NCBI GenBank assembly: GCA_030704615.1
Contig: CM060733.1
Coordinates: 65,658,001 to 65,722,000 of the forward strand
Reading direction: 5' to 3'
Source: Takakia lepidozioides
Lineage: Eukaryota > Plantae > Bryophyta
Length of the DNA: 64,000 nucleotides
Shown here: one piece after another, positions 1,444-61,327 of the stretch
How the letters are laid out: each line of letters starts with the position of its first letter
Numbering within the stretch: the stretch's first letter is position 1
Made by a program: the position numbers and the translations under genes
The notes under the pieces: model-generated
The model's database searches: none
What the model was told of the DNA's origin: nothing
Seen by the model: the letters and a program-made list of their open reading frames with translations, nothing else

Positions 1444-1464
1444 ACCATGAGGACACGGCTTTTT

Positions 1465-1836: not shown

Positions 1837-1849
1837 CAGGGGACAAGAA

Positions 1850-7900: not shown

Positions 7901-7991
7901 ACAAATTTAGTTACCCCACATCTCCACCACGATTCCGGCTCCAGGGGGGTTATTCCCCTTCCTCTACCGGCTTAGTTTAGCAACGTGGGAA

Positions 7992-22789: not shown

Positions 22790-22935
22790 TGGGCTGTGTT
22801 AGGCTGTGACAGGCTGTGTCAGACTGTGACGAGCTGTGATAGGCTGTGTGATGTTGTGATGGGTTGTGATAGACTTTGTGACACTGTGGTGGGCTGTGAT
22901 AGATTGTGTCACACTGTGGTAGGTTGTGATAGCTA
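22790..22935. repeat. 10-bp-period CTGTG array between pol and ORF3
   Basis: GGCTGTGTTAGGCTGTGACAGGCTGTGTCAGACTGTGACGAGCTGTGATA... Confidence 0.85.
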
Positions 22936-29894: not shown

Positions 29895-30075
29895 GTGTGC
29901 TGTGACAGACTGTGCCAAACTGTGTTGGGCTGTGACTGTGCCGAGCTGTGACTGGCTGTGTAAAGCTGTGTCGGGCTGTGACTGGCTGTGCAAAGCTGTG
30001 TCGGGTTGTGATAAGCTGTGATAGACTGTGACGGGCTGTGTCGGGCTGTGATAACCCATGACTTGACTGTGTGAG
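29895..30075. repeat. 10-bp-period CTGTG array inside the LTR
   Basis: GAGCTGTGACTGGCTGTGTAAAGCTGTGTCGGGCTGTGACTGGCTGTGCAAAGCTGTG... Confidence 0.9.
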
Positions 30076-30192
30076 CCTGTCTACCACCCCTAAACATGTG
30101 TGGCCTAAGTCTACCATTTGTAAGTCTGCGCAAAATTAAGGGTACCCCGCAGAACCAGTAAAAGCGTCTAAGTCCCAAACAGCCCTCTAACA

Positions 30193-33100
30193 AGAGCCCA
30201 TTCCAATGGGCTTTGACCATGCGCAGGTCTCAGCCACAATATCCATCCCAAACTCTCAAGCTAGGGGGAGAGGAATCTATAGGCTGAACACCTCCCTCCT
30301 CTCCATCCCAGCCTTCAAACATGGATTAGCGCTAGCTTGGGCTCAAGCGGGGAATGGCTCTACCAACCCAGTCGACAGATTCCTTCTCAAGTTGAACGCA
30401 GTAGCAGCAGCCAGCAAAAAGCTTAGCAAACAAATCACGGAAGCCAGGAAAAGGAAGTTCCAAGCCTTGACGAAATGCCTTAAGGTTTGCCAAACCAGAA
30501 TGGAATCCCCTAGATGTGACAAGTCTACTTACCAAACGTATTTGAAGGCAAAGAAGAATATGGAACTCTTCCAATCGCTCAAGGAAGAGAAGTTTAGGCT
30601 CAAGGCTAGTATAAACTGGTCAACAAAGGGTGAGAAGATGACCAAATTTTTTTTTGATAAAGCCAGGCAGAAAAGAGTGGCCCACTCGATCGCGGAACTC
30701 AAGGACCCTATCTCCGGCCATTCAGCAAAAACTCCCAAGGAGCTAGCGGCATTGGCAGCCATCCACTTCAGGAGCCAGTTTCACAGCGATTTGAGCTGCC
30801 AACCCCTAACCCCAGAACAGATCTAGAGCCTAGATCACACCCCTAAACTGATGCATCCCTCGGAGGCCCAGTCGCTGGATGGCGAATTCACGGACATAGA
30901 GCTGCAGGACGCACTGGACAAGCTTCAGATCGGTAAATCCCCGGGCCTTGATGGCATCCCGGCTGAGTTCTATAAATCGTTGTGGACACACATAGCGCAA
31001 GATTATTTTTTGGAGATGGCCAACCACATCTTTCTCACTCGGAGCATGCCACCCCAGCTATCACAAGGGGTCATCATCCTCTTTTTTAAGAAAGGGGACA
31101 GAACAAACATTGGAAATTATAGACCCATAACCCTGCTGAACGTGGCCTACAAGATAATTGCCAAAGCTTTGGCAATCCGCCTGCATCCCCACCTCCCAAT
31201 CATCATTAGACCCAGCCAAACTGGCTTCATTAAGGGCAGATACATACTAGACAACTTGCTGTTGGCCCAGGAAATTCCAGTCTTTGCAAAAAAAACCAAC
31301 CAGGCTATTGCAATGCTCCTTCTTGACTTTGAAAAGGCATTCGATAGAGTGGAGTGGTCCTTCCTACTCGGGGCACTCCACAGGGTTGGAATTTCCTAGG
31401 AGTTCTGCTTAAGGGTTCAAACACTATTGATGGGGTCGTCCAACAGGGCTCTCCTCAATGGGCATCTATCCAAGTCATTTCCACTGCTCCGGTCGGTATG
31501 CCAGGGGTGCCCCCTGTCCCCCTTCCTCTTCATTATAGCAGCAGACACGCTGGGCCATATGATGGAGGCAAGTCACCACATCACAGGTCTTCATATCACA
31601 AATCACTTCACTAGACAGCCGCAGCAAATTAAGGAATCCATGTTCGTAGACGATACGTTCCTAGCTTTACAAGCCACACACTCCAATTTAGATAGTGCCA
31701 GCAGTTTACTACAATCATTCTGCCAGGCCTCTGGATTCAAGGTCAACTGGGGCAAAACGTGTGCCCTTCTCGTGGGAGAAACCTCGGCCTCAACTCTGGG
31801 AGTTGACCCAACTTGGGGGCAGGATAAAGGTCTTAGATGGCTGAAACCAGGGCAATCAACAACCTTGCTAGGTTATACGTATGGCATTGATCTATCAGAT
31901 TTTTGAGGCAACGCAATCCAAATTTAAAACCAAGCTGGCTCATTGGGGCAGCTACCATTTGTCTTTAACTGGTAGGGTGCTGGTAGCCAATCAGGTCCTA
32001 TCAGCTGGCCAATGATATTTCGCCTCAGCATGGAGGCCCAACGAAATGCAAGTGAATGAAATGAAAAAGCTCATGCGCAACTTTGTCTGGGGGGCAAAGC
32101 ACCCCTCGGAGAAAAAAAGGCCACAGGTGTCGTGGAAGCAGATATGCCTACCAAAGAAGAAAGGGGGGCTGGGCATTATAGACCCACAAACTCAGTTTAC
32201 TGCTCTCCTAGCGAAATGGATCCCTAGATTTATGGGACCAGAAGGAGGGGCCTGGAAACACCTGGTAAGTGACAACATTGCCTTGGCCTCTCCACTAAAG
32301 ACGGTGATCTGGAACCCTTCTTATAGATGGTTGGTAAATGGCTTCAAACATAAACAAGTCGGATCCCCCCTGTGGACAGCAATTTGGCAGGCATGGGCCA
32401 AGCTCAGGCCCTTTCTTACAAAATCAGACCCGGTATCGTACGAAGAAACCCTCCGCCAATCCCTGTTTCTCAATACCAATACCCCACATACAGATCACAA
32501 AAATCAGGCTCGCAAATGGTTTGCCTGGGAGGTACATGGCATTCATAAAGTCAAACACATCTGGTCGAACGCCAGCTTCCGGTCTAAAGATCAAATTGCA
32601 GCCTCCGTAGGTGCAGTCAAAGCCACCAAGTCATACGATACCATTCTCCGATCAGTGTCTGCACTGTGGCTACCTAACCTTATTAAAGGCCCAGTAATGC
32701 CCAATGACACTTTCTGGACGCTGGAAATAATCAACAGCACTATTACCATTCTGTTTGTCACCGGAAAAACCGAATACCAATTCTCCGGATATCACTTTCA
32801 CTGCGAAGTGAACTCCATGAGGCTTACCCTTCAAAACCGTCAACCCCTAGCCACCCCTCGTTTCACCCACACCCCCATAAGGGTCTGCTGGTGGTCATCC
32901 CCAGCTAAGGAGATGAACCCTCTCCCACCGCTCACCACTTCCCTGATTAGCTGGCTGGCCAGCCAAACATTTGTTTGGATTGGTGGAAGACCCCTACAGG
33001 ATCTGGACATGGACCCCAAAGAATGGCAGTGGAATTTCAGGCCATCCTCCAAGCCATTTTTTGAGTACACAACCAAAAAAGCATACTCGGCAATGCTGAA

Positions 33101-34050
33101 CCCCTAGCCCCTATTGGGTAAATGGAACGAAAGATGGAGTCGCCTGAACTTCCAGATTGAAAACTGGAACTCCGTCTGGGGGACGATCTGGAACAAAACA
33201 AGACCAGCCAAGGTAGCAGCGTTTCTCTGGCAAATAGCAAACAGGGCAATAAAAGTGGGGGAATGGTTGGGATTTGATGCTGCCCTCCTCTGCAATGCTG
33301 TTCGGCTGCCCTAATGGAAACAATAGAGCACTGTCTGTTCCAAACCAGCTGCAGTCTGGCCCCTCGTCGCAAGCTTCTACAGAAAACTAGAACTTCCTCA
33401 CTCCTCGCAAAAATCTACATGGACATACAAATTGAAGCCAGGAAAGCGTGGAAAAAACTATGTACAGATATCGAGAGAGCACGATCGGACCAACAAGCTT
33501 CCCAGCTACACTCTACCTTCATTGCGACCTGGGGACGGAATGGGATGATCTGCAACAGCCCCAATCCGGATCGCTGCGACTGGAACAAACTGCCCCCAAG
33601 GGCTTGGAGAGACGCCACGGGTACCATCCACAGCCTCGCCGGAGTTTGACAGGGATATCAACTGGAAGCACGTTAAGCAATCATCAAAGGCCTCCAGGCT
33701 CAGCTTCCGCTAGGTCCGTCGGGCAAGCAATCCGCTGGAGCAGGCCTAACCGTAGCTAGTTTTTGACTGCAGGAGCTATGGTTTTGAGAAACACACATTA
33801 TCGAATCCGGTGGGATCGCCACCACTTAGCAACATTAAGCAAAAAAGCCAAAGGCCTCAGGCCGGACAATTCGTTATTACTCATCATGAGTGGTTAGGCT
33901 CCGAATCATTGACTACGGTGTGTGTGCCTTATGGCGTAATCGGAGGGTGTAATTTTTTCCCTCCCAGTAACCATCTATGTAAGGGCCTAGCCCACCAAAA
34001 ATATTTCAGAATAAAGTTAACCAGGGTTAACCAATATATATATTAAACTC
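30193..34050 (+). mobile_element. L1/Tx1-type LINE, 5'-truncated ORF2 (end of endonuclease, RT, C-terminal region) with stops
   Basis: FDH...YRLN, KSPGLDGIPAEFYK, NYRPITLLN, QTGFIKGR, LDFEKAFDRVEW, QGCPLSP, MFVDD, PKKKGGLG, ETIEH; AATAAA at ~34011. The 3' boundary is approximate. Confidence 0.92.
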
Positions 34051-34130: not shown

Positions 34131-34167
34131 CTTTGTTGTTTTGTTTTGTTTTGGAGAACAGGGGCGA

Positions 34168-34530
34168 GGCCTCTCATTTTTGAGTAATTGGGAGTTTATG
34201 TCGCGCGTGTGGGACAGGGCGCGCACGCCCGCAAGGATGCGGGGTCGCCCTCCCCCGCCCCGCCCACCCCCACCTGCCAGCCGCGCACTGCGGTCGGCAG
34301 CCCCGCAGCCGCCCGCGGCCCTGCCCGCCCGCCCTCGCCGCTGGGTCCGCCCGCCATCGGGTCCCCAGTGGGTCTGCCCTTGCTGGGGTCTGCCCAAGCT
34401 TGGTCTGCGAGGTCTGCCGGCAGACCACCCCAGACCGGCACAACAGACCCAGACGCACCCCAGATGATGTGCCGCCCATCTCACCGTGATGCTGCGCTGT
34501 TATCGTAGCCGCCCGGATTTAGGGCATGGC
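34168..34530 (+). repeat. Left TIR (~360 bp)
   Basis: Inverted match to 44318-44625; the mirrored spurious ORFs MGVYVARVGQGAHA appear at both ends. Confidence 0.92.
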
Positions 34531-34704
34531 AGCCGCCACCAATTGTGGGCAAAGACTATTTCATCGATCTTTTCCTCCCTCTGGTCTGTTCCTGCCAACG
34601 CGCTTCCATCCTGCCAAGAACGTGCGTGCTGTCGTCCTTCGCTTCCACTTTTCCAGGTCGTATTGCAGGTGCTTTCGAGTGCGCAAAGGGGTATTGCAGT
34701 GTAT

Positions 34705-37700
34705 ATGGCAGCGGCCGTCGATGCCCAACCAGAAAGCTTTCTTATACGTCCACTGCGACAATGTCTTCAAACACCAAAAGATGGGCCATTTTCCTGCAAA
34801 GACCTTTACTGGAAGAACGAGAGTCGCTCTGGATACATGGGCTCTCAAGTGCGGGTCCGCACGGCCTGTATTTCCTGGCAGAGAGTGCCCGACTTTGTAC
34901 TTGGAGAGGAGAGTAGAGACGGGTGTTCCACCCAATTTTACATAAATGTGCATGTTAACGCGAAGCCCGGACCGCGAAGAGCTCCAAGAGCTAACACATA
35001 TCTAACCTCTGTCATGTTTGCACCATATTCCCGCACTGCCTCTTTGTTCATGCCCTGTGTTTGTGCTTGCCGGACATGTACATGCATGATATGTAGATAG
35101 GGTTTAGGCTGTCTTACATGCTTGCAGAACTCCATGGGTGTTGATGACATACTCCGATGTCGATGACATACGACCCTGTCCAGGTATCAGTGTTGTTATG
35201 GACCAGAGGACAAGCGCACCAACAATTTGACTGTCACGGATCCTAAAGTCAAGCGAGGAGGTCCGGACGTTGGGGCTGGAAGCAGTAATCCTCACAAAGG
35301 TCCAAGACGAAAGAAAAGCCAATACGGCGAGTCTTACAAGCGTGGGTGTCTCTGTTGTTTCAAAGTCTCGCAATGTTATCTTGCTCCAGACATTGGGGTC
35401 ATCACATATTATAACAACATGCAACACCTGGATGTGTCCGGAAAACCCTCTCATGGCGGATATGCTGAGTTCTAGTTCAGCCGATATGCTTATGCTCCAC
35501 ATATTAGCGAGGAGCTCAAAAAGTGGATCATGGAATGCTTGTCTCAAGGCTTGAGTGTCGCCCAAGTCATGATTGAACGCAAGGAGCACGTCATGCAGAA
35601 CAGTGGCTTGGGAGACGCATGGACACGCGACGACTTTCTCCTCGAGCAAGATGTCCGAAATCTCGCTGAAAAACGAGCCTAGCAGACCTTCAAAAAACGC
35701 GCTGATGACGCACAATCCGTGCGTATGTGGAAAGATCAAAACCCGGACTCGGTCTTCTTCTACCAGGAGGAATCATTGGCACCCACATTTCAACATTTTG
35801 ATGGAGATTTGACCTTCACCATTGGGATTCAGACTCCTTGGCAGCGGCAGAAGATGTTGGACTTGGGCCATGCGCGCATCGTAGCTTGTGACGCTACATT
35901 TGGAACTAACCATCACAAGGTCTGCCATTGACCCTCTCCACGGGCTTTTGCTAGCATGATAGCATACTACAATGGTCTCCCACTCTTGTGGTGCATTGCT
36001 TATTTGTCCTCAATCCCGATAGACCTAACTGTTGTAGACCCTGTCCCAGTACACCCTGTTCTAGCAGACCTTCCACTGCACTCTGTTTTAGGGCAGACCC
36101 TTTTGCGTGTTCACCCTGTTATAGTAGACCCTGTGCCTGTTCACCAAGTTGCAGTACACCCTGTGCGTGTTCACCAAGTTGCAATACACCATGTGCGTTT
36201 TCACCCTATTGCAGTAGACCCTGTGCCTGTCGTTACGATACTGGTCTGCTAATTACAAATTGTCATTTCATGCAGTTCCCCTTGTACACGTTGATGGTGT
36301 TCGACCAATGGTTGAACGGAATTCCGGTTGCATACATTTTGTCAGCACGCAATCGAACATCAGACCTTATCCTGTGGATGCTAGCATTGCGTGATGCCCT
36401 CCTTCAGGAAAAGCCCAACTGGCGGCCAAATGCCTTCATTGTCGACGACGCTCATGCAGAAATCAATGCAATCCGGTATGCCACATCTCAATCTGCCCTA
36501 TGGTCTGCTGTATGGTCCGCTGCAAGGTCTACCATGTCTGGTCTGGTATGCCACATCTCATTCTGCCCTATGGTCTGCCCTATCGTCCGCTTCAGGGTAT
36601 GCTATATGGTCTGCCCTATATGGTCTGCCCTATTTAATCTCATGCTTGTGGCAGTGCTGTATACGAATGCCCGGTTCAGGCACTTCTGACTTTGTGGCCG
36701 CATGCAGGTCTGTTTTCACAGGAGTATGCATTTTCCTTTGCCTTTGGCATGTACGGAAGGCCTGGGTCAAGCAATCATGCCAGAAAATCAGTGATCCGGG
36801 AACATCCTCGAAACTGTTGGCAGATATGGGCGACCTTATGTACTGCAGAGGTGGACCGCAGAAAGAAGACGAAGCTGTGAAATGGGTTAAGAAAAAATTG
36901 AAGGCAATGAAAAAGAAATATCCGTCTGGTCAGTTGTTCCTCCACTACATTCATGTGTACTGGGTTCCCAAAATCGCTATGTGGTGTACTGCTGCCCGCA
37001 ACATTCCACATGCAAGCCAAGATACTAATGCGAGCATCGAGGCATACCACGGAAACTTAAAGGCGAGACTTAATATGGGCAAAGGCAAAATGACCGGTCA
37101 AAGAGCCGATTGGCTCATATGGGAGTTGACTAGGCGTGTACTGGTCCACTACTAGTACGACATTCATCTGAAGACGCATGGGTTTATTCGCAACGATAAA
37201 CAGGAAAAACACATTTCCAGTGCAATATGTGCAGCCCGTGACATACCTCTTTCACATGTGACTTTGCCTGTAGCGCCTGGGCAGCCTGCTTACGTCATCA
37301 GCTCCTCCGATCCGAATACAACGTACACCGTGTTGAATCCAGAGTCGCAGTGGGCCTGCTGCACCTGCCCGTGGGCGCTGAAAGGCAATATGTGCAAGCA
37401 CCAGGTTCGGGTCATAAAGTTGCTAAAACCAGACCTGCAAGACGGTCTCATTGTCCGAACATGTGGTTCCCACTTCGGTACTGTTCACGGTGGCTGGAGA
37501 ATTTGGACGAACACGACGACATGGCAGCATGCGACTTCGAAAGCGGTAACCTGCGTGCAAGCGCAACCCCAAACATGGCAAAGTCATTGCTCATGGTAGA
37601 CCTGTTGGAAGCTATTTTGAAACGGGAGATAACCGACCTGCTTGACCTTGTACACAACGACGCATACCTTATACACCATTGCTTGTCTGCGGTGCGTGTT

Positions 37701-37901
37701 TGTCGAGGGCAGATGCAGGACATCCTCGTCAAAAAAGCTTCCGGCATGTTACACCCGGTTGCAGCTCGAGCGTTCAATCGTGTAAAAGACAACAACAACA
37801 TGTCATTGAAGAGGAAAAATGATTTTGTGGAACATTTTCAAGCTCGGCGGAAAATGAAACTAAATGGGGGGAAAACGTGTGTCTGCCCTTCCCCCTATTA
37901 G
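34705..37901 (+). pseudogene. MULE-domain + SWIM zinc finger transposase, spliced, At4g13970/At1g60560-like; several stops and a frameshift
   Basis: KRGCLCCF, APHISEELK, TRDDFL, IGIQTPWQ, CDATFGTN, FPLYTLMVFD...GIPVAY, FIVDDAHAE, LCLWHVRKAW, QDTNASIEAYH, SWIM CTCPWALKGNMCKH. Introns ~35920-36276 and ~36476-36707; TAG at 35473, 35680 and 37153. Confidence 0.9.
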
Positions 37902-38011
37902 CCATATTTACTTGGCTCTGAGGCGGGTGTCTCATCATCCAGAACTGAGAAAGATGGATCAATCTAACTAAGGAAAGGACGTGCAATTGTCCAATGCGGT
38001 AGATCAATTCT

Positions 38012-38227
38012 CACCTGTAGTAGACCAGATCGGCAGACCATTATGGCAGACCACCTGCAGTAGACCAAATCAGCAGACCGTTATCGCATACCACCTGAAG
38101 TAGACCAATTTGGCAGACCATAATCGGATACCACCTACAGTAGACCAGATCGACAGACCGTTATTGCAGACCACCTGAATTAGACCATTTCGGCAGACCA
38201 TGATAGCACACCACCTGCAGTAGACCA
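38012..38227. repeat. 40-bp tandem repeat (~5.4 units), each unit with 2-3 AGACC motifs, between the convergent genes
   Basis: Unit approximately CACCTGCAGTAGACCAAATCGGCAGACCATTATCGCAGAC. Confidence 0.92.
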
Positions 38228-38539
38228 GCACTGACTTGTAATAGACCAATGCGGCAGAGCATCTGCGACTCCCTTAATGTGTTTTTTAAAGGTTTGATGA
38301 AGGAGACCACAAAGTCAAAAAATGAGCCAAAGTGAACCAGTAAACAAATGTAGTAGAGTAATGAAGCAAGCATAGTTCAATGAAACAGACCAAAGACAGT
38401 ACACTCGACTAACAATGGGACTGACTTGTGCCCCACATTTAGCCGACCACCGAATTTAGTATACCACTATGTCACGGAGCAGACCAGCAACCGTGGTCCA
38501 AACTCAGTCCACTGGAGGTAGCAGACCAATAACATTAAT

Positions 38540-41500
38540 TCAGTAGCAGATCACGCCGAGGAGAGCTGCATGCACTCCATGGGTCGAACTGGCCCCTACG
38601 GTGGGGGTTATCACTACTGGTACACCCTTTGTGCTTGACCACATGTTAAGCACCTGCGACGGACCACGAGCTGAGACCTCAGACGCCACAACCTTCACAT
38701 GAATATCAGACAACAAAACATCAGCAATGACCACCCAAATGCACTGGGGGAAAAAAATGGACTGCAAAAATGCAATGGAATCAAACCTTTGTGGGCGCTA
38801 TGGGTGTTTGCAATTGCACCACTCCTGTGGCAGGTACATCTTCGACTACAGTGACTGGTTTCACAGAATGAGAAGGGACAGAAACATGTGCATGTGTTTC
38901 GACAAGGTCTGATGAATGGTCTGCTATGGGGTCGAACATGCGGAGCACCCTATCAACGGATTGGTCTATTGCCAGTAGTGGGTCTACAGACGAGTCGGGG
39001 TCCACAAAAGTAAGCGGCAAAATGGCCAAAGATGCATCCTCATCTGCAATAGACCCTGCCTCTAACAGATGGGGAAGGTCACCGACCAAACTGTCACAGT
39101 CATAGTCCATTGTTGCAATTGCAGAATTGGTCTGTACTATGGATAAATGAGCACTGACGCCTTCCCGGTTCTGTTCAAGCAGTGCTGTGTCAAAAGGTCT
39201 GGTGGCAAGGGTAAGGTCCACTACCATTCTCTGCTTCTCAGCAGATATTGCAGTGGGGTGGAAAGGAATTGCTCCTCTCATTAACTCGTATGTGCCAGGG
39301 AGGATGGGCGTTGCTTCCTGGGTTATTGCCAGGTCTCCAGATGGTCTGATGTCTTGCACTGGCAAGGTCTGCTGATGTTGGAATGGTGAGGTGTCGGCGT
39401 CCATACCTGCGTCGCTATCCACTTCTGCGGTGCATTTGTCAAGCAATGTACCAGCCAGGGTGTCCTCCGGCAAGGTCTGATCTTCTCTCCTCTGCTCCAG
39501 CAAGGTCTGATCAGGTCTGCACTGGTCGGGAAATGTCTGCTCTGAGACGGTCTGGTGTGGTCTGGTCTGGTGTGGTATCCTCTGGTCTTTTGGGGTATGG
39601 TCTGTTGTGCACTCGGATCGTCTGGAGTCCTGCGCTGTGGTCTGGTCTTTTGTGGTCTGCTCTTGTCTTGTCTGGTATGAGGTGGTCTGGTCTGATTTGG
39701 TGTGGTCTGGTCGTGTCTGGTCTTGTCGGGTCTGTTGTGGTGTGCTCTGGCCTGCACTGGTCTGCTCAGGTATGATTACCACTGCAGCGGTCTGCTTTGC
39801 CAAAGTGATGGGTGCCCGCTGATCTGGAAAGGTCTGCCCATGTCCGATCTGGAAGTTGTTATCTGCAAAGGTCTGCATAACCAAGGTCTCCCCCGTAATT
39901 TCGGGTAAGGTGTGCAATGCCTCCACGAAAGTCTGTTTTGGCAACGAAAAGTTTTTGTCACCCACATTCTCTGGCTTGGGATCACTGGCAATCCAGTCGG
40001 GGGTCTGCTGGTTGGCATGTCGGTACTTGGGATTTGGCTGGGAAGGGTCTGCTCGCTCCACAGTCTGCTCGCCGCTGGTCTCCTGGGTCTCCATGGGAGT
40101 TGGGTTCTGTGTGTCTGCTGTTGTACGAACTAAAATGAGCCTACACTTAACGGGTGACTCGACTCCAGTATGGCCACGGAGGGCTCGTAGAAGCTGCCTT
40201 GCGCCATTGGCATACTGGTCAAGAGCATTCCGAACAAGCTCGTCCTCTGGATCATACTCTGCAACATGTCACAAACACGTCAAAAACAAAGCAGTCACCC
40301 TGGTCTGCTAACAAACAGAAGAATACATGGGGGTTTGATTCACATGGGGCTCTGTTGGTTGTCATGGTTCATAAAGTCTGCTAGAAGGTCCTCGTTCGTG
40401 GTCAACGTCAAGGTCTGTTTAAAAGGTCTGTTCAAAAGGTCTGTGTAAAAGGTCTGTTAACAAGGTCTGTTAGGTCTGATGACATACCATGATCTAGGAC
40501 TGTGGTCCACAGCCCAATATCTTTCATAAGCCGATCCATTAAGGCCTCGTCAAGCTCTCCCATAGCTGCAACACGGTCCTCTGCTGGAAACCCGCTCCAG
40601 AGCACTTGGAAAGCATGTCGTTTGTTGAATGCAATGTCAAAAACCGCACGCTCCTGCACAGTCACAAATCACATCATGGCATCTTGCGTGATACTTTCCC
40701 GAGCCTCTTCGCTTCCGTGTAGCAGGTCCATCTACAGGTTGTGAAGGTCTTTTTTTAATTTGGTGTAAGACCTGAAATTGCCAAATTGCATCCATTGACG
40801 GCGGAGGAAACAATCTGCCATCTCCTCAAAAGCAGTCTTTGTCAAGCTCGCTAAGTGCTTCAGACGAACACCGGGCGATGGCCATGTGCCTTATCTCCAG
40901 TGGGCGTAGGTCGTGCATGAGAAAGAGCTGCGCAATAAGTGGTGGCTCGGTCTCCTCTGCCAGAAGCGCCACTCCATACTCACGGGCTTTGTCCAAAACA
41001 CGAGTCGCCTCCTCCGCCGTGAACTCCATTGAGGAGTGCTGCGGAGCAAAGGTCCATCGGGAGGTGACAATGCGGTGAAGCTCATTGTACCAGTCCAGAT
41101 GCCGATTGCTTTCCCCACAACGAAGCTTCGGAAGAGTGGGGTCCTCCTCATCAGTTGCAGACCGTTGTGGACGACGCCATGGTCTGTCAAATGGGAAAAC
41201 AGTTCGACCATGCAATGTGGTCTGCTGAGGGTTTGCTGAAGAGGTACAAAGGTCCGCTGGAGGACGGGTCACGGAAGAAAGGTCCACTGAGCCGGGTCTG
41301 CTAGTCTGACCGGCGCTGTCAAAAGCCTTTACAGCAGACGGAGGGAGGCCTGTTGCGCGGCCAGTGGTACCATCCTGAATTGATGCAATGGCATCAACCG
41401 ACTGTGGATACAGACTCAGGATATAGTCATGAATATCACGGACCTCATTCCGGACAAGTGTATTTTCCAAGGGAGGACCGTTCAACCTGTACTTCCAGAT

Positions 41501-43119
41501 TTGCAAAGCCCTGTACACTCGGTTATCTTGCGCATTCGCCTCCTGAAAACAAACAGCAATATTGGCCTTCACATTAGAGCAGTAGACCATAGAGCAGTAG
41601 ACCATAGACTAGTAGATTGGGCCTGACAGCAGACTAGTAGACCATACACTAGTAGAGCATAGTAGTAGACCATAGCCGTGGACCTATGCAGCAGACCACA
41701 ACCACGGCAGTAGTGCGCCTTTCAAAGCAACTCCAGTACCATGTTGCGCAAAGCAGACCCAAAACAGTAGACGGTTCGCAGCAGACCACATATATAATAA
41801 TAATAATAAAACACTATGATTTGCAACAGGGGAAAGTAGTCACATGGTTCTGGACCTATAGAGTAGACCACAGCCAGAACAAGTAATGCAATACCATGTA
41901 CAGAATAGCAGACCCAGAACAGTAGACTGACGTAGCGGGCCACACATACAACACCCAGCATAGCATATCACTAATTGCAACCAGGAAATCAAAAAACTCA
42001 AATATGGTAGGACGGCAGAAAGAGTGGTTGAAGTACCTGGAGGCCGTTGTAGTCTTCATCCCTTGGGTGTGATCGTGCCTCCACCCACTTCTTCTCGGCT
42101 GTGTCAATGGTCTGCTATATCTGCCCTGATCTCACATAAGCATACAAAAAAGGGAAAAAGTCCGGATCTAATTCATCTGGGTACTGGTCTGGCAGAAGAC
42201 CGTGGGGAAGCAGGTACAATGTGCCAGGGCGGACAGGGGTGCCCGTTACATCTCCATGAGCGTCAGTCAGGGTCTGCTGTTTCTTGGTCTGCTTGTTGGG
42301 TCTGATATGTGGTGGGCGTCGTGGGTCTGTTTGAGGGTGTGATTCCTCCATGGGGATGTCCGAGTCAAGGGTTATGTCATGTACCGGTGGGGCGTACCCA
42401 ATGGGGTCGTTCACCAAGTACGGTCTCACAAGTAGTCCCGGCCGCTCCGTCGACATGTCCTGAACATGATCCTCCTCTTCATGAGAGTCTTCCTCACTTG
42501 AGTCATCCCCACTGGACGACAAAGTTGAAACGGCAGCCTGTGGTCTGCTGGTGTTGGTCTACTGGGACTGACTTGGTTGCAATTCTTTGCTACTCACTCT
42601 CATATCCCGTGGTCTGCCAGTACTGGTACTGCAAGATCTGTGACTTTTGCGGTCTACATTTTTTTTAGCTCCATCACTGAGCTTCCTTTTCTTCACTGAC
42701 ACAACGAGACCGGGGCTCAGCAGGCCGGCTTCAGTGTAATAACGCTGCCGCACTTCCTCAGCAGACCGAGCGACGGCATGCGCACCCCTACACTTTGCAG
42801 TGATTTCTTTTGTGGCCTTAGACGAACTTGGCTTGGGCCAAGGCTTGAAGTTCTCAGGGACCATACCTTTGCATCCTCCATCAAGGGCATGGCGGTTTAG
42901 AGTCTCTTTGTCCTTGACAATATCGGGGCAAAAGGGGCACTGAAACCGATCCTTTGGCCAGTTCTCTTTCTCCTTCGCTACGCGCAAGTCCAAAAATGCT
43001 TCTACTATTTTAGCATCATACTCAGTTGGCTCATACCAGTACCTTCTCTTGGCTTTGTGGCGAGGGGCATGCACATATTCCACCCAATCGGCTCCGCCCT
43101 TTGGGCAAGCTTCTTCCAT
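38540..43119 (-). pseudogene. Second, multi-exon gene of the MULE element; unknown protein with an N-terminal C2H2/C2HC-like zinc finger and a QT-repeat tail
   Basis: Colinear minus-strand ORFs 42559-43119 (FQCPFCPDIVKDKETLNRHALDGGC; KKRK NLS-like), 42115-42522 (acidic), 40826-41543, 40432-40665, 38781-40094 and 38540-38654, with plausible GT-AG breaks; frameshift near 40828. Exon limits are approximate. Confidence 0.7.
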
Positions 43120-44317
43120 GGCTGCAACCGAAGGAGGAATTGTGTCAGCGACAGTCTGCTAAATGCAAATGAAGAAGAGCAAGCAAAAAAAGAAATGAAG
43201 GTCTGGCGGTGAAGAAGTCGGGTGAAGTTGATACCTTTGCACTTCGGCAACGACGGGCACGCGGCCTTTGAAGAGTGGGCGGGCGCTACAAACGAATCGT
43301 CGAGTCGAAGAGGCAGAAACCGCGAAGCGCAACAAACCGTGCAGTCGCAAAGTGGAGAGACGCGAAAGACGCAAGAGGAGGAAGAGGCGAGGACCCCAAC
43401 GTAACGGCTCACTGCTTGGCGTGACAGGAGCACGCGTGCGACCGCCGAGGCCATGCACGTCGGCCATTGGACTGCCGTCGAAACATCAAACGTCCCGGAG
43501 GCACAATAATGGCCGCTGCCAAGGACTTTCATGGTCTGCCCTAAGTCTCCACCAAAAGGGTCGGCCAAAAGGGTCTGCCAAAAGGGTCTGTGGCACTGGT
43601 CTGTCGCATTCGTGAGGCAGCGATTGTCTGCACTCGGTCTGCCGTCGGGGTCTGACCAGAGTTCTCCAGGCTGGTATGTTGGTTCGGTCTTCTCGTCTGG
43701 ACTGGCATGGTGCACTCTTCTCTTCTCCTACTCTGCCCATCTGGTCTACCCTCTGTCTGCAGTGTGTCCCCACCCGTTTCACCATTTCAATGGTCCCCCG
43801 ACTGGGTCTCTGCATCCCCGCACTGTCATGGTAACACTCGGAAGGTCCACTGGTTCGTTGCACAAAAAATTCCGCCACGCATGCCCATTTCGTCCTACAT
43901 CGATGGGTCCACCTGCAAACAACATCCAAGAGACGGAACTCGGGAGGAAATCGGAATTTTATACAGCCAGCCATGCACATATGCTTCCGCTATTTTTGCA
44001 ATGTCATTCCACACATGCTATATGGAGGACAAGCCTCGAACAAGACAGTGTGACAAGGCCGATTCTCAATTGTTGTCCGCTAAATGAGTCGTACTTGTTA
44101 GCAAAGACCTAAATACTTCCATTCAAGTCTGCACTGTAAACTCAATGTAACTCACTTCCCCGCGCTCAAACAGTCCCACGAATAGGCGAACAACAAAGCA
44201 AAAATAGTAGAAGCATATGAACAAAAGAGGCTATTCTAAACAGTCAAACAACAAACAACAACAAGCAACACAAGAAAAAAAAAAAAAGCAAAGGGGTCTG
44301 AGGAGATCGGCGAGTGC

Positions 44318-44625
44318 CATGGCATGCCCTAAATCCGGACGGTCTGGATAAAACCGGATCTGGACGGGCAGATGCGCGCCACGTAGGTCTGGGGTGGTCT
44401 GCCGGCAGACCTCGCAGACCTCGCTTGGGCAGACCCCAGCAAGGGCAGACCCACTGGGGCGGGCTGGGCGGCGTGCGGGCAGGGCCGCGGGGCTGCCGAC
44501 CGCGGTGCGTGGCTGGCATGTGGGGGTGGGTGGGGCGGGGGAGGGCGACCCCGCGTCCGTGCAGGCGTGCGCGCCCTGTCCCACACGCGCGACATAAACT
44601 CCCAATTATTCAAAAATGAGAGGCT
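44318..44625 (-). repeat. Right TIR (~310 bp)
   Basis: Inverted match to 34168-34530. Confidence 0.92.
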
Positions 44626-44859
44626 TGATGCCCTTAGGCTGCCATAAGGCAAACCTTGACGGATGATCCGACGAACAATAACGAGCTGCAGCACTGACAG
44701 CTAAGGGGGCACACTAAGAACGTGTTTGAAGAAGCATTTTCCATGTCCAGAGGAAGCACCAAATACCCAGAGCATTGAGTCTCTGAAGAGCGGATCCCTA
44801 GTGTAATGAATGAAGATGCACTAGAAGATCAAAGAAGGGATATGAATTCTCACACCTGC

Positions 44860-45244: not shown

Positions 45245-45628
45245 GCAGGGGATAATGTGGGGTTGTTAATTCGTGGCCTAAAGCGGGATGGAGTACAGCG
45301 TGGGCAGGTAACAATGTCATTGCACGCTTCTCATGGCAAATTTGTTGTAATGTATTGCTTCATCTGTCTTTATAGCTTGCATGTTGGATTTCTTATGACT
45401 GGCCGTGGCGCTAGCTCCCTGGTAATGTGCCTGCAAAGGAAAAACATATGGGACTGATTGGATGAATGGCACCAGGTGATCTGCAAGCCTGGGATAGTGA
45501 AGACTCATAAGAAGTTTGAAGCAGAGATTTATGTGCTCACGAAAGAGGAGGGAGGGCGGCACACAACCTCCCTTTCCAACTACAGGCCTCAGTTCTATTT
45601 GCGTACTGCTGATTGTACTGGGAAAGTT
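45245..45628 (+). pseudogene. Fragment of a nuclear gene for organellar (probably mitochondrial) elongation factor Tu: two exons and the intron between them
   Basis: AGDNVGLLIRGLKRDGVQRGQ (45245-45307), GT..AG intron, then VICKPG...[19 protein letters not shown]...[17 protein letters not shown] (45476-45628). No other EF-Tu exons nearby. Confidence 0.9.
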
Positions 45629-45759
45629 GGGTCATGACACAAGGTCAAGGACAACGTGGTGAGGGCACCTTCTTCTTCGACCTATTTCAGCCTGTTTTGC
45701 CCTCTCACCAGACCTGGCCCTGAGATGCATATTGAATTCTGTAAGTTAGCTCGTTGCTC

Positions 45760-46190
45760 GTTGATAAGTAGGGTTGGGGGTGTTTGCTGGAACAATTCTA
45801 GGCTGTCATTGTCAGCTGCTAGCAGGAAGGCAAAGATGTATGCATGATTTTGTGCAGAGGCATAGATAGCTGAAGGAGCAGGGATAGCGTGTGAGTCCAG
45901 ATTCATCCAAGAGGGCCGGATTTCAAGCTCCACGTTACCTATGATTCCTTGTGGAAGGATAGATACAAGAAACCTGTATGGGTAGATGGTCAACTGGAAG
46001 CCGTAGCAGCAGCGGCACAATTGATAAAATCAGGCACTGCTAACGAAGGTACCTTCTTCAACACATTTCACCCTGTTTTCCCCTCTTATCAGAATGGGCC
46101 CTAAATTTCATGTTGAATTCTGCAAGTTAGCTGTTGAGTGAATCTAGTTTGGAGTGACTTTGACATGATACTGCCAATATGACAAGGATA
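45760..46190. repeat. Diverged inverted copy of segments at 19680-19930 and 20085-20320
   Basis: For example GGGTAGATGGTCAACTGGAAGCCG and TTCAACACATTTCACCCTGTTT...CCTCTTATCAGAAT match reverse complements in the 19.7-20.3 kb region. Confidence 0.85.
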
Positions 46191-46234: not shown

Positions 46235-46730
46235 CATGTGCCATCGTCAAAGCTGAAATTGTACTAGTTGTCATTCTGAACACTGCCCTGGTGGACATGC
46301 ATGCCAAATGTGGGTGCAGCAAGCCTGATGCGAAGGGAGAGTTCGACAACATGGCTAAATGAGATGTGGTATTGTGGAATGCCATGATTGCAAGGTATGT
46401 GCAGCATGGGTGTGGGATTAAGGCTTTGGAAACCTAAGAGCAAATGATGTGGGAAAGGATGAAGCCAGACCATGTCATGTTCATTTGTGTTTGTAATATG
46501 CATATGCGAGCCTAGAAGCCCTGGGAAGGGGCCAAGAGGTTCATGGTGACATCATCAAAGCTGGAATTGTACCTGATGTCATTCTGAACATTCCCCTGGT
46601 GTACATGTATGTCAAATGCGAGCCTGGTAGCCCTGGAAAGGATGCAAAGGTCCATGGTGACATTGTGAAAGCTGGAATTGTACCACTAGATGTCTCTAAA
46701 CACTGCCTTGGTGGATATGTATGTCAAATG
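46235..46730 (+). pseudogene. Degenerate PPR fragments
   Basis: ILNTALVDMHAKCG, LWNAMIARY, GQEVHGDIIKAGIVPDVILN. Confidence 0.8.
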
Positions 46731-47599
46731 CACAACAGGGGCAGAGATTGAAACACGGCGAAGCGGGGGCGGAGCGGCGCTCCGCCCTCCCACCGTGATC
46801 TTGGTTGTGTCTTAGCAAAGCTTTTAGCTATAACTATTCTCCTAGGGTTCCGCCATATTTTTTAGTTCTCGTGTCTTATCAGTTCTCTGGTTTAGCTGTG
46901 CTGCTATTTACCCGAACCTCTACATTCAGCCATGGCCGCCGCCATGGCTTCTGCTCTTGCTCACAGCACCTTCATGAGGAGTTCTCGCCATTTCACCTAT
47001 CACTCTAGCAATACCCTTTACAGTTGTTCTATAACGCATCTCTTAAGCTCTGTCTATATACGCAGTTGTCCTATAACGCATTTTTTAGAGTCGATATTGT
47101 TGGGCAATACGATCTCCTACGAAAAAGCGTCCCTTTTGAAGCTTTTACAGTGTTTTTTGAGCGCTCTGAACCTCACTCGGCTCAACCCAACTTCGACCGT
47201 GCACAAGCCTGCAGGCTTCACAACGTTCCCCACCAGCAGAGCCTGCTCCCCGCCGTTAAACTCACCAAGGGACACAGTTGGCACCCAGCAACCCTTGTTA
47301 CCATGGCCTAAAAAGAAACATTTGCATGGCTGATACTACGTCTTTGGGACACGAGCGGCAAGGGAATGGTCTCAACATGCAACCATCTCTGAGAAGTGAC
47401 ATCTACAGTGCTTCAAATATTCCCAAAGTTATGGTTAACCAGTCTGTCTTCCGGTGCTTCTTTAAGGCTTCATTCCTAGACATGGATATTATCCCACAAG
47501 GTGCAAAAATCCCCCACCCTTCTTTTACTTGCTCAAGCATACACAAGGTTCTTTGCCTCTATGCCTCAACTCGTCTCTGTTTCACTCAGCTCTGCTTAT

Positions 47600-50420
47600 C
47601 ACCCCACATCACAAGAGTCTGGCAGCCATGGAAAAGCGCAAAGCTGTACCTGATGACATCATCAAAGCTGTAGTTGTTCCAAATGTCCTTCTGCACACTG
47701 CCCTGGCAGATCTGGCAAAGGGCATAGAGGTCCATGGCGACATCTTCAGAGCTGGAATTATACCAACTGTCATTCTGAACAATACCCTGGTGGACATGTA
47801 TGCAAAATGTGGGTGCATCAAGGATGCAAAGGGAGTGTTTGACGCTATGGTTGAACGAGATACGGGCTTGAAGATTCTGCTGCAGTTGTACCAAATGTCA
47901 TTCTATACACTGCCTTGGCAGATCTGGAAAAGGGCAATGAGATCCATGCTGGCGACATCTTCAGAGTTGGAATTGTCCCCACTGTCATTCTGAACAATAC
48001 CCTGGTGGATATGTATGCAAATTGCGGGCCCATCAAGGATGCAAAGAGAGTGTTTGACACTATGGCTGAACGAGATATGGTGTCGTGGAATGTGATGCTT
48101 GAAGGTTCTGCTGTAGCTGTACCAAACGTCATTTTGCACACTGCCCTGGCAGACCTAGAAATAGGCGATGAGGTCCATGGCGACATCTTCAGAGCTGGAA
48201 TTGTACCAGCTGTCATTCTGAACAATACCCTGGTGGACATGTATGCAAAATGTTTTGCTGTAGCTGTACCAAATGCGATTCCGCACACTGCCCTGGCAGA
48301 TCTGGAAAAGGGCAACGAGGTTCATGGCGACATCTTCAGAACTGGAATTGTACCAACTGTCATTCTGAACAATACCCTGGTGGACATGTATGCAAAAGGT
48401 GGGCTTGCTGACATCATCAAAGCTGGAGCTGTACCAAATGACATTCTGAACACTGCCCTGGCAGCTCGGGTAAAGGGCAAAGAAGTCCATGGCGACATCG
48501 TCAGAGCTGGAATTGTAATGAAAGAGAAAGAGCTGCAGCCGCAACAGCAGCAGACTATACTAGAGGTGGAGAGACAACCCTTATCAACATATCTGCCAAG
48601 TGTGTCATGTGCGGCAGCATGGTGGGTGCACGCCAAGTGCTTGACAAAATGCCTGAACGGGATGTGTTTATCTGGACTATAATGGTGGCAGCAGGTTTCA
48701 AGCATGGTTTTTGGAGGGAGGCCTTAGAGATTTACGTGCACACAAACAAGGAGTAACACACAACAAAGTCACATTGGCTTGCGTTCAGACTGGTAGCCAC
48801 AGCAAAGGGCAAAGAGGCCCACGATGACATTATTGGCGCTGTAAGTGCAACAGATGTTATTCTGGAGTCTATCCTCGTTAATATGTATGCAAAGTGTGGG
48901 ATTGTAAGCACTGCTCGTCAAGACTCTTACAGGATGGCTGAACGAAATGTATTCTCTTGGAACGCAATGGCTGCAGCGTATGATCAGCATGGGTGTGGTA
49001 GGGAGGCTTCTGAGACTGTGAACAGTTGATACTGGACGGGGTAGGAAGCATTGTGGTTGTTTGTCAGTTGACAATATGGTGCAACACGATGCGCTTTTGG
49101 AACGCCATGATTGCAGGACATTCTCAGTGTGATTGTGATAGGGAAGCTCTTGAGATCTATGAACAACTGATGCCAGAAGGGGTCATGCCGGACAGGCTCA
49201 TGTTCAACTGCAGTCTCAATGCGTGTGACAGCCCCCAAGTCCTGGCAAGGGGTAATGAGGCCCATGCCACTGTCATCAAAGCTGGACTTCCACCAGATAT
49301 TACTCCACTTGTCGAAGGACAGGCCATTCTTCTATTTCCAAATGTTTTTGTTCCCATGTTTTTGGGTAACGGTGGCTGCAACCTCTTATGGCAGAATCGT
49401 ACCAAGACTGGCCACACCATGGACAATGCCAGAAGGCTGCTACTTCTTGTCAACACAAACCCCCACCGTGCCCAGCTACTCTACCCTCTGGTGTATGGTC
49501 TCCCTCCGCAGGCAGGAACTGTTGACCTGCCCTGATGCCCTTAGCTGGTGTCACATTGTGGTTGGCGCCCTCGAGTCATTCGGTACAGCTGCTAAGGAAG
49601 CCATCCTGGAGCCCCCGATGTGTCAGCATGAGCACTCTCACATTATCCAAACTGGATTCAACCCCAACGTTTTTCTGCTCAACACCCTGGTCAGCATGTA
49701 TGTTAAAGGTGGGAGTATCATGGATGCACACCAAGCCTTCAAAAAAATGCCTGAACGAGATCTGGTTACGTGGAACATAATAATGGCAGGATTTACCAAG
49801 CATGGGTGTGGTGAGAATGATTTGGAGACATATGGGCAGATGATGCGGGCAGGGGTGAAGGCCAACCACATCACATCTGTTTGCGTTTGCAAAGCATGTG
49901 CGAGCCTGGTAGCCCTGACATGGCATGTGCGAGCCTGGCAGCCCTGGCATGTGAGGACACTGTGAGGCTTGGCAACTGAAAGAGGCTCTACGGATTTTGA
50001 GCGAAGGAGGCATTTCTGCAGATTCACATACTTATGTTTGTCTCTTGCATAAGTGCATCAAGATGCCAGGCCTTGAAGCTGGAAAGCATGAGCACTCTCA
50101 CATTATCCAAACTAGATTCAATCCCAACGTTTTTCTGCTCAACACCCTGGTCAGCATGTATGTTAAATGTGGGAGTATCATGGATGCACACTAAGCCTTC
50201 AAAAAAATGCCTGAACGAGATCTGGTTACGTGGAACATAATAATGGCAGGATTTACCAAGCATGGGTGTGGTGAGCATGCTTTGGAGACAGATGGGCAGA
50301 TGATGCGGGCAGGGGTGAAGGCCAACCACATCACATCTGTTTGCATTTGCAATGCATGTGCAAGCCTGGCAGCCCTGATAAAGGGCAAGGAGGTCCATGT
50401 TAACATCATCAAAGCTGGCT
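47600..50420 (+). pseudogene. Scrambled PLS-class PPR fragment cluster with internal duplications (e.g. 49625-49920 vs 50087-50385)
   Basis: Repeated EVHGDIFRAGIVPTVILNNTLVDMYAKC, RDMVSWN and ERDLVTWNIIMAGFTKHG; many frameshifts. Confidence 0.85.
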
Positions 50421-57653: not shown

Positions 57654-59676
57654 CTCAAGCTGGCGGAGAGTGTTTGGTGAAAGGCTCATCTCATTCTGCC
57701 CAGCAAAAGGACGAAATGAAGCCCCCAAGCATAGGACTTTCTCGAGTCCAAACTGTTTAAGGTAGCGCAAAGCGAGTGCCAATGCTTGCACAACTATGTC
57801 TGGCATTGCCATCACTGCTTGCATCCCAAGAACATCCATCCAGTTACAAATGCAAGCAGGGAGGGCAGGAGGCACATATCAGAGGAAGACATGGAGAGGA
57901 TTTATTGTGCCCAGCTCACCTGCAAGCCTTCATCCACCTTCTCCTCTTTGGGGGACATTTCTCCCTCTGAAGCAGTGCCTACCACACTTGAGTTTTGATT
58001 GGACTGGCTTCCATAAAAAGCGACCACCTCAGCAACAGCTCCCCCGTCTTTGAAGCAATCACGTGGCATGCGTTCAACACGAACCTCTGAGGCAGTCCCT
58101 GCAAATTCCATCAAAAGCTACACCCACAAATGCACTTAAGAACATCAACAAACTTCTTCTTACTGCCCTGCACAAGCTCCCAAATCCCTTATACACAAAA
58201 CCACAAAAGAGTAGGAATAATTGCAACAGCAACGCGGTATACCCACCTTTTCAGTTGCTGAAGCCAGAGGTGTTGCAAGGAAGAGCTCAGCTGGGGAACA
58301 TGTCAGCAACCGTGCCTCCAGCTCAGTACGCATCACCGTGTCCTTAAAATCTCCATACATAACATCCCCTGTTGCAGTCTCTACAGCCACAACCCCAAAC
58401 CGTGTATCAAAACTGCTTGCTTTTCTGTCTCCTTTTAACCCAAATCGCCCCCCCTCTTCAGCAGCAGCCATCTCACCCATTCTTCCGGGCAGTCCGACAC
58501 GTGCCTTGTTAGGGCTCCAGCCATGCAATAATGGCTGTTCTGCAATGCACATGAGATAGGTACTCAAGCGCCCAACCCTTCCCTGTGTCTCTCCTCCTAG
58601 ATCTTCAACAGCCTCAAGCGTTGCCCGGGTGTAGAGGGCCGAGAGATTACGGGTGAAAGGCCCAGTTTTGTTTGCCCCGTGTGCTTTGATTGCTTCTGTC
58701 TCTGTTTGTCTGACAACCCCAACTTTATACCCAGATTCCACAAGGCGCCGCACATGCACATGAAGTCTGAAAGTGGGAATGCTTGCTGTGAGAAAGTTGT
58801 GGTCATAGTGGGCAAAGATGCCCAGCACATGCGCGGCTGTCTCTGCATCACCTCCAAAGAACCGAAACTTATAGCCCACTTCAATTAGCAGCACCACATC
58901 TGGGTACCTACATCACCCAATGAAACAGTCTGTCTCAGTATTTGTCCATGGGTCTATTTATTCCATGGTCATTCACAAAACTGCAAAGTGGGCCAACGAT
59001 ATGGAACAGATATTCTCTCTTTAAAGTAACTGCAAGTTCAAAGGGCAATAAAACACTCCTCAAATATGAACTTGGCTAGAGAGTCCCAGAGGAATGTTCT
59101 AGCTATTAGGAAGAGGGTATGTACCTGGCCTTGAGTTCCACCACTTGCTGCTCAAGAGGGGTGTAAGTCACTTTTCCCAAGGACGGCTTTCCATACCAGG
59201 CCTCCTGCACCACACCATTCTGGTCGCTACGGGCCAATAACTTTTCAAAGAACTTCTTGTGCCGGACTGGATTAGAAGCAAGGACGGAGACCTGATTGAT
59301 ACTCTGAACTGAGGGTTTCTTGCGTACTCTGACTGGGTTGGCAGAAATCTGCAGGGACATATCTGGTTCTCCTTAAGGACATTGAGGGAGTCAAAGGTAT
59401 CTCCTCCTGGCTTGTGAAGTCTGGTTTCCAGCTCCTTAGAAGCTTTGTCCAGTACATTACAGTTGCTGACTCCAGTGTCCACCTCTCTCTGCTCCTTGAC
59501 TATGTTGTTGAAGTCACATGGATTGGGCTGTGACAATAGCTCGCTATTAGTTTTCGAGTTCTTAATATCCTCAGTTCCTGTACCCTGAGTAGCTCCATCA
59601 GACAGAGGTCTGTTGGAAAGAGTACGTTTCTTGTGACATGGAATAGCTGTTGAATCGACGTCACCCTCCCTCCCAC
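57654..59676 (-). pseudogene. MSH3: Captured MSH3 fragment (MutS domains I-II), 4 exons with introns: 59676-59125, 58907-58247, 58117-57920, 57818-57654
   Basis: YTPLEQQVVELKAR|YPDVVLLIEVGYKFRFFGGDAE...ASIPTFRLHVHVRRLV...GPFTRNLSALYTRATLE; GDVMYGDF; MSLSPNTLRQLE. Frameshift near 59360, last acceptor AG mutated to AA, no core or ATPase exons. Confidence 0.92.
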
Positions 59677-59980: not shown

Positions 59981-61327
59981 TCCCTCGGCTATGTGGTGTG
60001 GCGCAGGAGACAAAAAAACGCCAAGTCCCAACCCTCCTTTCTGTTCACGATTACCCTAATTGGCAACCTTATTAGCAACTTTTTAACTTTTTTAAACCTA
60101 ATGAGCAACCTTATTTGCATTATATGTGCCTTCAAAATGACACGTGTAGTGATGTAGTCGTATAAATAGAGCTGTGAAACCATCTTCAGTCATGGAGTCA
60201 TAATATTCCATGAAACGTCGTCCACGTGTAGTCAAACATATCACACTAGTCATATAAACCATCCCTGTCATCATGGTCAACAATTTTTGACCAATGCTCC
60301 CTAACTTTCCGGAGTTATGTAGTGATATCCATTACTACAAAGTCATAAAACTATGACTGCAATGCATTTCAGCGCTCTGTAGTCATCTACCTAGTGCAGT
60401 TTTTATGACTCCGCCAAAGCCGTAGTCCTAAAAACGCTCATCTCTTGTAGTGCATCCTTCGTCTGTGGTTGGATTCCATCTCTCCGGTGGTTGTTCAACC
60501 ATCTTGTTTCCGGCCAGAAACCTTCAAGAAGGTCAATCTTCTCGTCAGTCACCGGAATTGGCTTATTCGCGAGAATTTCTGATCGTATTGTTCCATTACA
60601 GCTCTGTAATGATCGTCAAGCAACATTCGTCCAGAAATCCCTGTATTTTTTTATTCCATTTTTTATGAAAGACTGTTTTCTGATGAGTCCTCCTTGCTTC
60701 CCCAGATCGGAGTTCTAGGAACAGCATCTGGTCATCTTCAGGGAGCTTGGGAGTCCCGTCAGGATTGGACTTCCACATCTTCACGCTGCTGTTCATTGGG
60801 AGCCAATCTGAATCAGTAGCTGACTTCTTATACTTCGTGATGGGCCAACCCTCCGCATCTACAAAAAACCTGAACACGTGCATCTCTGAAGTCCTGATCA
60901 GCTCTTCCTTTCCATCTAGTATACAACCTTTCACGAACTTCTTAAAGTCAAGATCCTCCTGAATAATTTGTGGAATGAATTGCAGGTCTTGCGAGATCAT
61001 GAATGACCTCATCAAATCCGGAAGAATGTAAGTGTTGCGTTCATTTAGCTTCTTCGATAGGTAGCTGAAGAAACCGTTGATATCCTCATGGGTATGGCCG
61101 ACCATGAGAAACCCTAGCTGGATCTCCTCAAAAACACCTTTGGCTGTGAGGAGGGACATGAAATCAAGCAATATCCATCTGTTCTTATTGTCCTTCGCGG
61201 AATTGTCCATTTGCAAGTAGAGTTGTCTCGGAAGCGGACGCGCACCCTGTTTGTCTTCTAGCCTACAGGGTTTCAAAGCATCCAAACATCTCGATTTCCC
61301 TCTCATGCCTCTTCTGGCTCTTCTGGG

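Follow-up and report, generated by a model that had tools for sequence, protein, structure and literature searches.

Proven anti-silencing factors of plant transposons are few: VANC, TnpA and some transposases. The closest described systems are VANDAL/VANC (VANC21, VANC6), in which a Mutator-like element (MULE) combines an accessory gene with a dense, short, co-oriented word in intron and spacer repeats (PMC5735166, PMC10398659). The sites of VANC21 are clustered short motifs of the same orientation (PMC5735166), and the main domain of VANC resembles PMD proteins (bioRxiv 10.1101/2024.04.02.587720; 10.1101/2024.09.27.615353). Ulp1-bearing KIU genes are also VANC-type, and those of KIU/Kaonashi reside in MULEs without terminal inverted repeats (TIRs) (review PMC13317346). 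Spm TnpA, from another superfamily, and the AtMu1 transposase are element proteins on clustered, family-specific motifs in the element ends, TnpA acting at the termini (bioRxiv 10.64898/2026.08.24.746577). Extra open reading frames are common in MULEs (PMC6446971; PMC12973397), and a survey describes the evidence for anti-silencing as confined to context-specific cases (PMC12973397). A comparable layout is present in a 64,000-nucleotide stretch of the Takakia lepidozioides contig CM060733.1 (the window, whose own numbering is used throughout): positions 34168-44625 form a 10.5-kb Mutator-like element, bounded by inverted repeats of ~270 bp, in which a transposase gene faces a convergent second gene, ORF2, and the word YAGACC recurs from end to end. 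This word is probably a binding site for a protein encoded by the element, as its distribution suggests.

The initial annotation had judged by eye that the core AGACC/GGTCT is denser inside the element than outside, and the counts bear this out: 141 copies lie within 34168-44625, a density of 13.5/kb, and the remaining 53.5 kb of the window hold 72 (1.34/kb); AGACC ranks first of all 5-mers by inside/outside ratio. The extended consensus is (G)(C/T)AGACC, with 95 copies of CAGACC inside and 22 outside and, for TAGACC, 24 and 15. Against the element's own order-2 Markov model, CAGACC reaches a log10 p of -38.7, compared with -2.8 to -7.9 for the top-scoring 6-mer of each of 10 overlapping, equally long control segments from the window, which confirms the enrichment statistically. 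Most single-base variants occur at 1-2 times background vs. 22 times for CAGACC; TAGACC, CGGACC and CCGACC are enriched 6-8 times and CAGACG 4 times. Neighbours of the YAGACC word show no similar enrichment, and the L1 and Gypsy elements of the same window carry the motif at background level. With the nine arrays masked, 51 YAGACC copies are left in 9,079 bp vs. 6.3 expected. The features of the element are the following (arrays were located with TRF):

34159..34436, + strand: left TIR (alignment 34168-34436 vs. 44386-44625), with 7 YAGACC copies in its inner part, in both orientations
34732..37868, + strand: MULE transposase gene, with an upstream exon at about 34732-34914 and main exons at 35167-35919, 36276-36475 and 36708-37868
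36010..36250 (TRF 36104-36230), + strand: 30-bp array in transposase intron 1, with 6 YAGACC on the + strand and several units with a broken motif
36480..36640 (TRF 36499-36633), - strand: 12-14-bp array in transposase intron 2, with 6 copies on the - strand
38005..38260 (TRF 38012-38228), + strand: 40-bp array of three ~13-bp subunits between the genes, with 14 copies on the + strand
38543..43119, - strand: ORF2, the convergent second gene, roughly 1,250 codons, with exons 43119-42037, 41542-40488 and 40258-38787 plus a short last exon
39549..39764, - strand: 5/15-bp GGTCT array inside the QT-rich coding exon of ORF2
40405..40480 (TRF 40410-40471), - strand: 13-bp array in an ORF2 intron, with 6 copies on the - strand
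40488..41140, - strand: conserved helical domain of ORF2, about 230 aa, without a Pfam family and about 53-55% identical to its homolog P0001
41570..41915 (TRF array 41575-41674), + strand: 15-bp array and dispersed copies in an ORF2 intron, with 9 copies on the + strand
42879..43040, - strand: C2HC zinc finger region of ORF2 and upstream helix (Pfam zf-C2H2_4 E 0.012, below cut-off)
43525..43660 (TRF 43552-43590), - strand: 13-bp array upstream of ORF2, with 6 copies on the - strand
44386..44636, - strand: right TIR (same alignment), with 7 YAGACC copies

The density of YAGACC follows the type of sequence. It amounts to 18-21 per kb in the TIR regions, 22 in the transposase introns, 18.5 in the spacer and 19-30 in the ORF2 introns; among exons, it is 1.9 in the transposase, 3.8 in the conserved ORF2 exon and 19 in the QT-rich ORF2 exon. 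The motif is thus dense in introns, spacer and TIRs but not confined to non-coding parts: 43 of about 119 copies (about a third) sit in ORF2 coding sequence. These 43 copies compare with 17.0 +/- 3.3 (maximum 28) in 2,000 synonymous shuffles and occupy all three frames, while the coding DNA of the transposase has 3 copies vs. 1.1 under the same shuffling. The orientation of the motif is clustered (20 runs vs. 57 expected). An origin of the word at the protein level (Gln-Thr) or from splice sites was considered and is ruled out because the word appears in every frame, on either strand and also in introns. The data support YAGACC as a site at the level of DNA, clustered by strand and avoiding conserved coding sequence.

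All arrays named in the initial annotation were recovered by TRF, and the copies that it had seen in both TIRs number 7 in each. It had also called the arrays independent. They are separate amplifications with different periods; however, cores of 6-14 bp around the motif are common to 27 of the 28 array pairs, some of them also occurring in the TIR, and the seeds of the arrays may be related.

Compared with VANDAL/VANC, the element has long intact TIRs, where those of VANDAL are degenerate, and two genes instead of three. Its word is 6-7 bp long and lies for a third in coding DNA, and its accessory protein carries a C2HC finger, gives no DUF1985/DUF287 match and has a putative role in binding and demethylation. 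Like VANC, the predicted ORF2 protein unites a conserved domain with repetitive variable regions. By the tests run, the element thus appears VANDAL/VANC-like in layout without being a member. Maize MuDR (mudrA/mudrB) shares the long TIRs and the convergent second gene; ORF2, with about 1,250 codons and a zinc finger, differs from MURB, which was compared by layout only. An element-wide motif is not known from MuDR.

Membership in the Mutator superfamily is indicated by a DDE transposase with a C-x2-H motif and by the long TIRs, which are 94-97% complementary in ungapped blocks. The transposase of the window copy contains stops and a frameshift, and its start codon is not fixed. The spliced reading has the D/D/E residues and the motifs DATFG, VDDAHAE, CLWH and SIEAYH. 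Pfam matches for MULE (E 0.011) and SWIM (E 0.0013) came from single broken exons and are both below cut-off; homologs are 43-52% identical, and PF10551 is found on 19% of the members of the Atlas neighbour cluster (score 0.92). The positions of the two introns are common to most relatives. No Rfam match was obtained.

The convergent, spliced second gene was correctly recognized and lies on the minus strand. Its model was built from six-frame and splice readings and from the homolog P0001; the start at 43119 and the short last exon ending at 38543 are probable. The predicted protein consists of a zinc finger, an acidic linker, the helical domain of ~230 aa and a long QT-rich tail. A finger had been announced as CPFC-x11-H: it is present, but its spacing is C-x2-C-x12-H-x5-C. 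Comparison with P0001 indicates that 41542-40488 is one exon, frameshifted in the window copy, and a candidate intron at 40771-40654 was rejected. Four stops in ORF2 (42561, 42117, 40734 and 40669) are absent from 94-100% of the depth in run X2, and contigs of X5 and X6 have 11 extra bases at the frameshift site. ORF2 is a gene of the family, open in other copies, with stops and frameshift private to the window copy.

A HMMER search with one ORF2 exon against 1.84 billion representatives gave two matches. One is real: P0001, 48% identical and with matching exon borders. The other, the bacterial repeat protein P0002, was rejected as a low-complexity chance match. A search for homologs of the finger exon among longer proteins found none, a search with the P0001 domain matched P0001 itself and nothing else, no usable Atlas match was found for P0001 160-395, and sequence searches of the PDB gave nothing significant. 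No DUF1985/DUF287 match was found on the ORF2 exons, P0001 or the domain pieces of the relatives at E up to 1-10, a negative that holds within the reach of these HMMs, below which remote homology is possible. Two structure predictions have mean pLDDT values of 34 and 44 (low confidence), Foldseek gave no match for them at E <= 0.001, VIA-align gave only helical-hairpin matches (Z <= 7.5), and a fold was neither assigned nor excluded. With such models, ORF2 may still be a remote relative of the VANC/PMD fold.

Some further traces of this gene were met. At window 40757-40809, 53 bases of the most conserved stretch of ORF2 are matched by a 1,650-base contig (run X8, tentatively taken as RNA); the in-frame translation of its loose ends resembles P0001, which points to a third, more distant homolog. 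Loose ends of X2 and X5 at window 40760-40795 translate to P0001 sequence, and the P0001 sister family and the window element thus appear to share one host organism. Residues 80-145 of P0001 make up a tandem expansion of their own, with 7 Gln-Thr pairs; were these encoded by CAG ACC, the word would also be present in the sister family.

The element is multi-copy. In run X2, the summed depth ranges from 2,560 to 8,249 over the element, including ORF2, whose depth resembles that of the transposase, vs. 51-66 for the contigs of the right flank; summed depth is not copy number and is read here solely as "many copies". Contigs from runs of three studies contain the element, whole or in part; among the runs listed none is of RNA, which carries no information on expression. 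The window copy itself is dead and decayed. Of its 56 majority differences from run X2, 43 are C-to-T/G-to-A changes on the window-copy side. In a sample of 80 rows out of several hundred more, and after removal of transversions, rows from the flanks and other rows, 45 such transitions fall on 19 CHG, 14 CG and 12 CHH sites, out of 1,235, 946 and 3,209 available sites, respectively.

A metagenome scan yielded 34 loci, many of them the same insertion seen twice, with transposases 31-60% identical to that of the window element in the best segment; no relatives were found in prokaryote genomes. By DNA similarity, the loci group into F1 (17), F2 (6), F3 (5), F4 (2) and four singles. F1-F3 are TIR elements of 10-13 kb with a convergent second gene, and 8-11-bp direct repeats flank three of the seven relatives examined with both ends (L002, L004 and L017; one more is doubtful). 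A finger profile from five copies of these relatives, run against 642 six-frame pieces, places the window finger at the top (E 2.6e-5). The middle domain of their second gene is collinear with the ORF2 helical domain at 10-20% identity. For this domain, local tests gave no hmmsearch match, hhalign E-values of 0.24-0.85 and a pairwise z above 2 in 1 of 10 cases; the end-to-end profile score, with boundaries set by eye, beat 60 of 60 block shuffles in three settings (z 4.1-6.4). The other two exons of the relatives' second gene have no match in the window. The suspicion that ORF2 might be a one-off capture can be set aside: it is open in other copies and homologous to the second genes of distant relatives. 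ORF2 is an old gene of the element and not a recent capture, because a homolog exists at ~50% identity and second genes in distant MULE families possess a homologous finger.

The second gene of F1-F3 ends in an Ulp1-like domain (PF02902 E 0.0055-0.05 in three of four pieces, below cut-off), like the KIU/Kaonashi genes (PMC13317346). Unlike these, F1-F3 are TIR-bearing and lack arrays, and their Pfam C48 matches stay below cut-off; ORF2 itself has no detectable Ulp1 part, as the relatives' Ulp1-like profile (1 of 4 rows out of frame) had no match in the window. In L002 (9250-14100), L004 (12280-16470) and L034 (12335-17170), all on minus strands, three MULE families of a GC-poor plant share a decayed second gene. 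It consists of finger, helical domains and Ulp1-like protease, a KIU-like architecture in TIR-bearing elements. An upstream reading in L028 is Ulp1-like by eye, without a Pfam match.

In a FastTree tree, the window element pairs with P0003 (0.94) within a larger clade (1.0) that also contains L011, L024, F4 and L028, and F1-F3 fall apart from this clade. The tree comprises 21 transposase rows, threaded on the sequence of the window element, and 18 of the 34 loci, with duplicates and short loci left out, and is midpoint-rooted. Related elements can carry a different element-wide motif: GAAACAT is spread over F4 (L023, L013) and L028. In L023, GAAACAT(G) occurs 39 times vs. 6.5 expected, in the TIRs, the 5' region, the introns and the 3' region, and is low in the transposase exons. 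L028 has 13 GAAACAT in 5.6 kb vs. 0.26/kb in its flanks; its transposase intron 2 contains a 42-bp array of about 13 units (5583-6125), YAGTGAA-rich and with 6 TAGACC. YAGTGAA is met again near L028 10130-10310, and the TIRs of L011 contain it within their 40-bp repeats. L011 is a compact 5.4-kb element without a recognizable second gene, whose repeats are limited to the TIRs; it is a young, nearly intact single-gene MULE (1-5437, the contig being the whole element, TIRs 94-98% alike). L024 shows no motif enrichment. Element-wide words therefore recur in the lineage of the window element and differ between families. A further word, GYAGAAC, is 2-4-fold enriched in F1-F3 and was left as a weak candidate, being dispersed and possibly in part a product of consensus building. 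Deaminated and about 80% alike, the F1-F3 copies are old, and a CHG-containing word could have decayed in them.

By analogy with VANC and TnpA, the ORF2 protein would bind the clustered, same-orientation YAGACC sites, and dense clusters would mark members of the family for activation, through methylation loss or other relief of silencing. Copies that amplify the site by local tandem duplication would be favoured, the transposase exons being intolerant. The co-oriented clusters in the interior are similar to the targets of VANC and thereby favour the accessory gene as the reader. That the ORF2 product, the likeliest reader, binds YAGACC falls just short of an even chance; that it does so to counter silencing, which by analogy alone is the likeliest purpose, is given a probability of roughly 0.3. 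A number of observations weigh against this. One C2HC finger gives little ground to claim DNA binding, a third of the copies lie in coding DNA, unlike VANC sites, and several 30-bp and 40-bp units hold a broken motif. The decay of the window copy is concentrated at CG and CHG, as expected from methylation; the CpG observed/expected ratio is 0.68 for the element, 0.42 for the flanks and 0.37-0.51 for the motif-rich introns and spacer, and gives no sign of local protection at the motif-rich parts. In F1-F3, which have the homologous gene, no arrays and no AGACC excess were found (0 of 3 families), the best 6-mers scoring like flanking DNA; in L023, L013 and L028, which have the GAAACAT word, no match to the ORF2 finger or helical profiles and no convincing translated match was found. 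The proposed pairing of each ORF2 subfamily with its own motif draws no support from these relatives, and neither does the preference for ORF2 over the transposase as binder, gene and arrays not co-occurring. The AtMu1 transposase, moreover, can by itself demethylate and activate its family (bioRxiv 10.64898/2026.08.24.746577). The symmetric TIR clusters and the relatives keep the transposase open as a reader: at odds clearly below even, YAGACC would be a subterminal site of the transposase, with internal copies loading more transposase or spreading activation, and ORF2 would have another role, for example as a MURB-like integration aid. Mutator transposases bind inner TIRs, where the 7 copies of each side are found, and the element-wide motifs (window element, L023/L013, L028) belong to one transposase clade (support 1.0) and are absent from F1-F3, which bear the ORF2 homolog. 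The AtMu1 transposase binds motifs in TIRs and hypomethylates them (bioRxiv 10.64898/2026.08.24.746577), and MURA interacts with MURB (PMC12973397). However, AtMu1 transposase peaks and the binding and demethylation by TnpA are confined to termini, whereas most copies in the window element lie kilobases inside, and L011 and L024, of the same clade, lack internal enrichment.

Two other explanations dispense with an element-encoded binder. Slippage and short duplications could have spread a TIR word through unconstrained parts in the absence of selection or any binding function, as the cores common to arrays and TIR, the units amplified with a broken motif and the short-unit arrays in Gypsy elements of the window would allow. 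This is improbable: the enrichment survives array masking and synonymous shuffling, neighbours of the word do not share it, no control segment comes near, and L023/L013 repeat the pattern with another word. Recognition by a host protein, be it an activator or a chromatin or boundary protein, that the element exploits for expression or protection would fit the distribution as well, which by itself cannot tell whose protein binds, and host PMD proteins oppose Polycomb silencing together with DNA motifs (bioRxiv 10.1101/2024.09.27.615353). It is judged quite improbable, as L1 and Gypsy stay at background and related MULEs use another word, to which family-specific recognition is better suited. 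Returning to ORF2 as an anti-silencing factor, it is tempting, if doubtful, to suppose that an old TIR-bearing MULE lineage outside VANDAL evolved its own factor from a C2HC-finger/helical/Ulp1 gene; equally tentatively, the window family would then have shed the Ulp1 domain and evolved in step with YAGACC, writing it throughout the element and even into its own codons.

A literature search, with most subscription papers outside its coverage, found no description of the window family, nor of anti-silencing by MULEs other than in flowering plants. A second and unrelated accessory protein from a MULE, with its six-letter target already predicted, would be a test of the repeated evolution of such systems. 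The same target, known beforehand, would also show which of the two reads it, the accessory gene or the transposase. If it is the transposase, transposase-mediated activation would extend from the ends to whole elements; if ORF2 is an independent anti-silencing factor, a VANC-like system arose independently and a new programmable demethylation tool would be at hand.

The termini of relatives suggest that the true ends of the element are near 34159 and 44636. No 8-11-bp target-site duplication was found at the window copy for any cut point within about 40 bp. Its left flank is a poly-T tract, which follows an L1-like LINE (window 30191-33500, + strand, multi-copy by depth) and abuts the left TIR; LINE and tract may explain the missing duplication. 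Further to the left, two 10-bp CTGTGA-type arrays (window 22792-22932 and 29899-30054) lie in two separate places in or beside a Gypsy-like element. To the right, window 45586-46000 is a repeat of extremely high depth (summed depth over 900,000 in X2). Degenerate tandem repeats with 84- and 259-bp units occupy 46497-48700 and 61500-64000 and are presumably PPR-like. We take 58160-58912 to be an MSH3-like exon and 60596-61369 to be a transposase-like reading.

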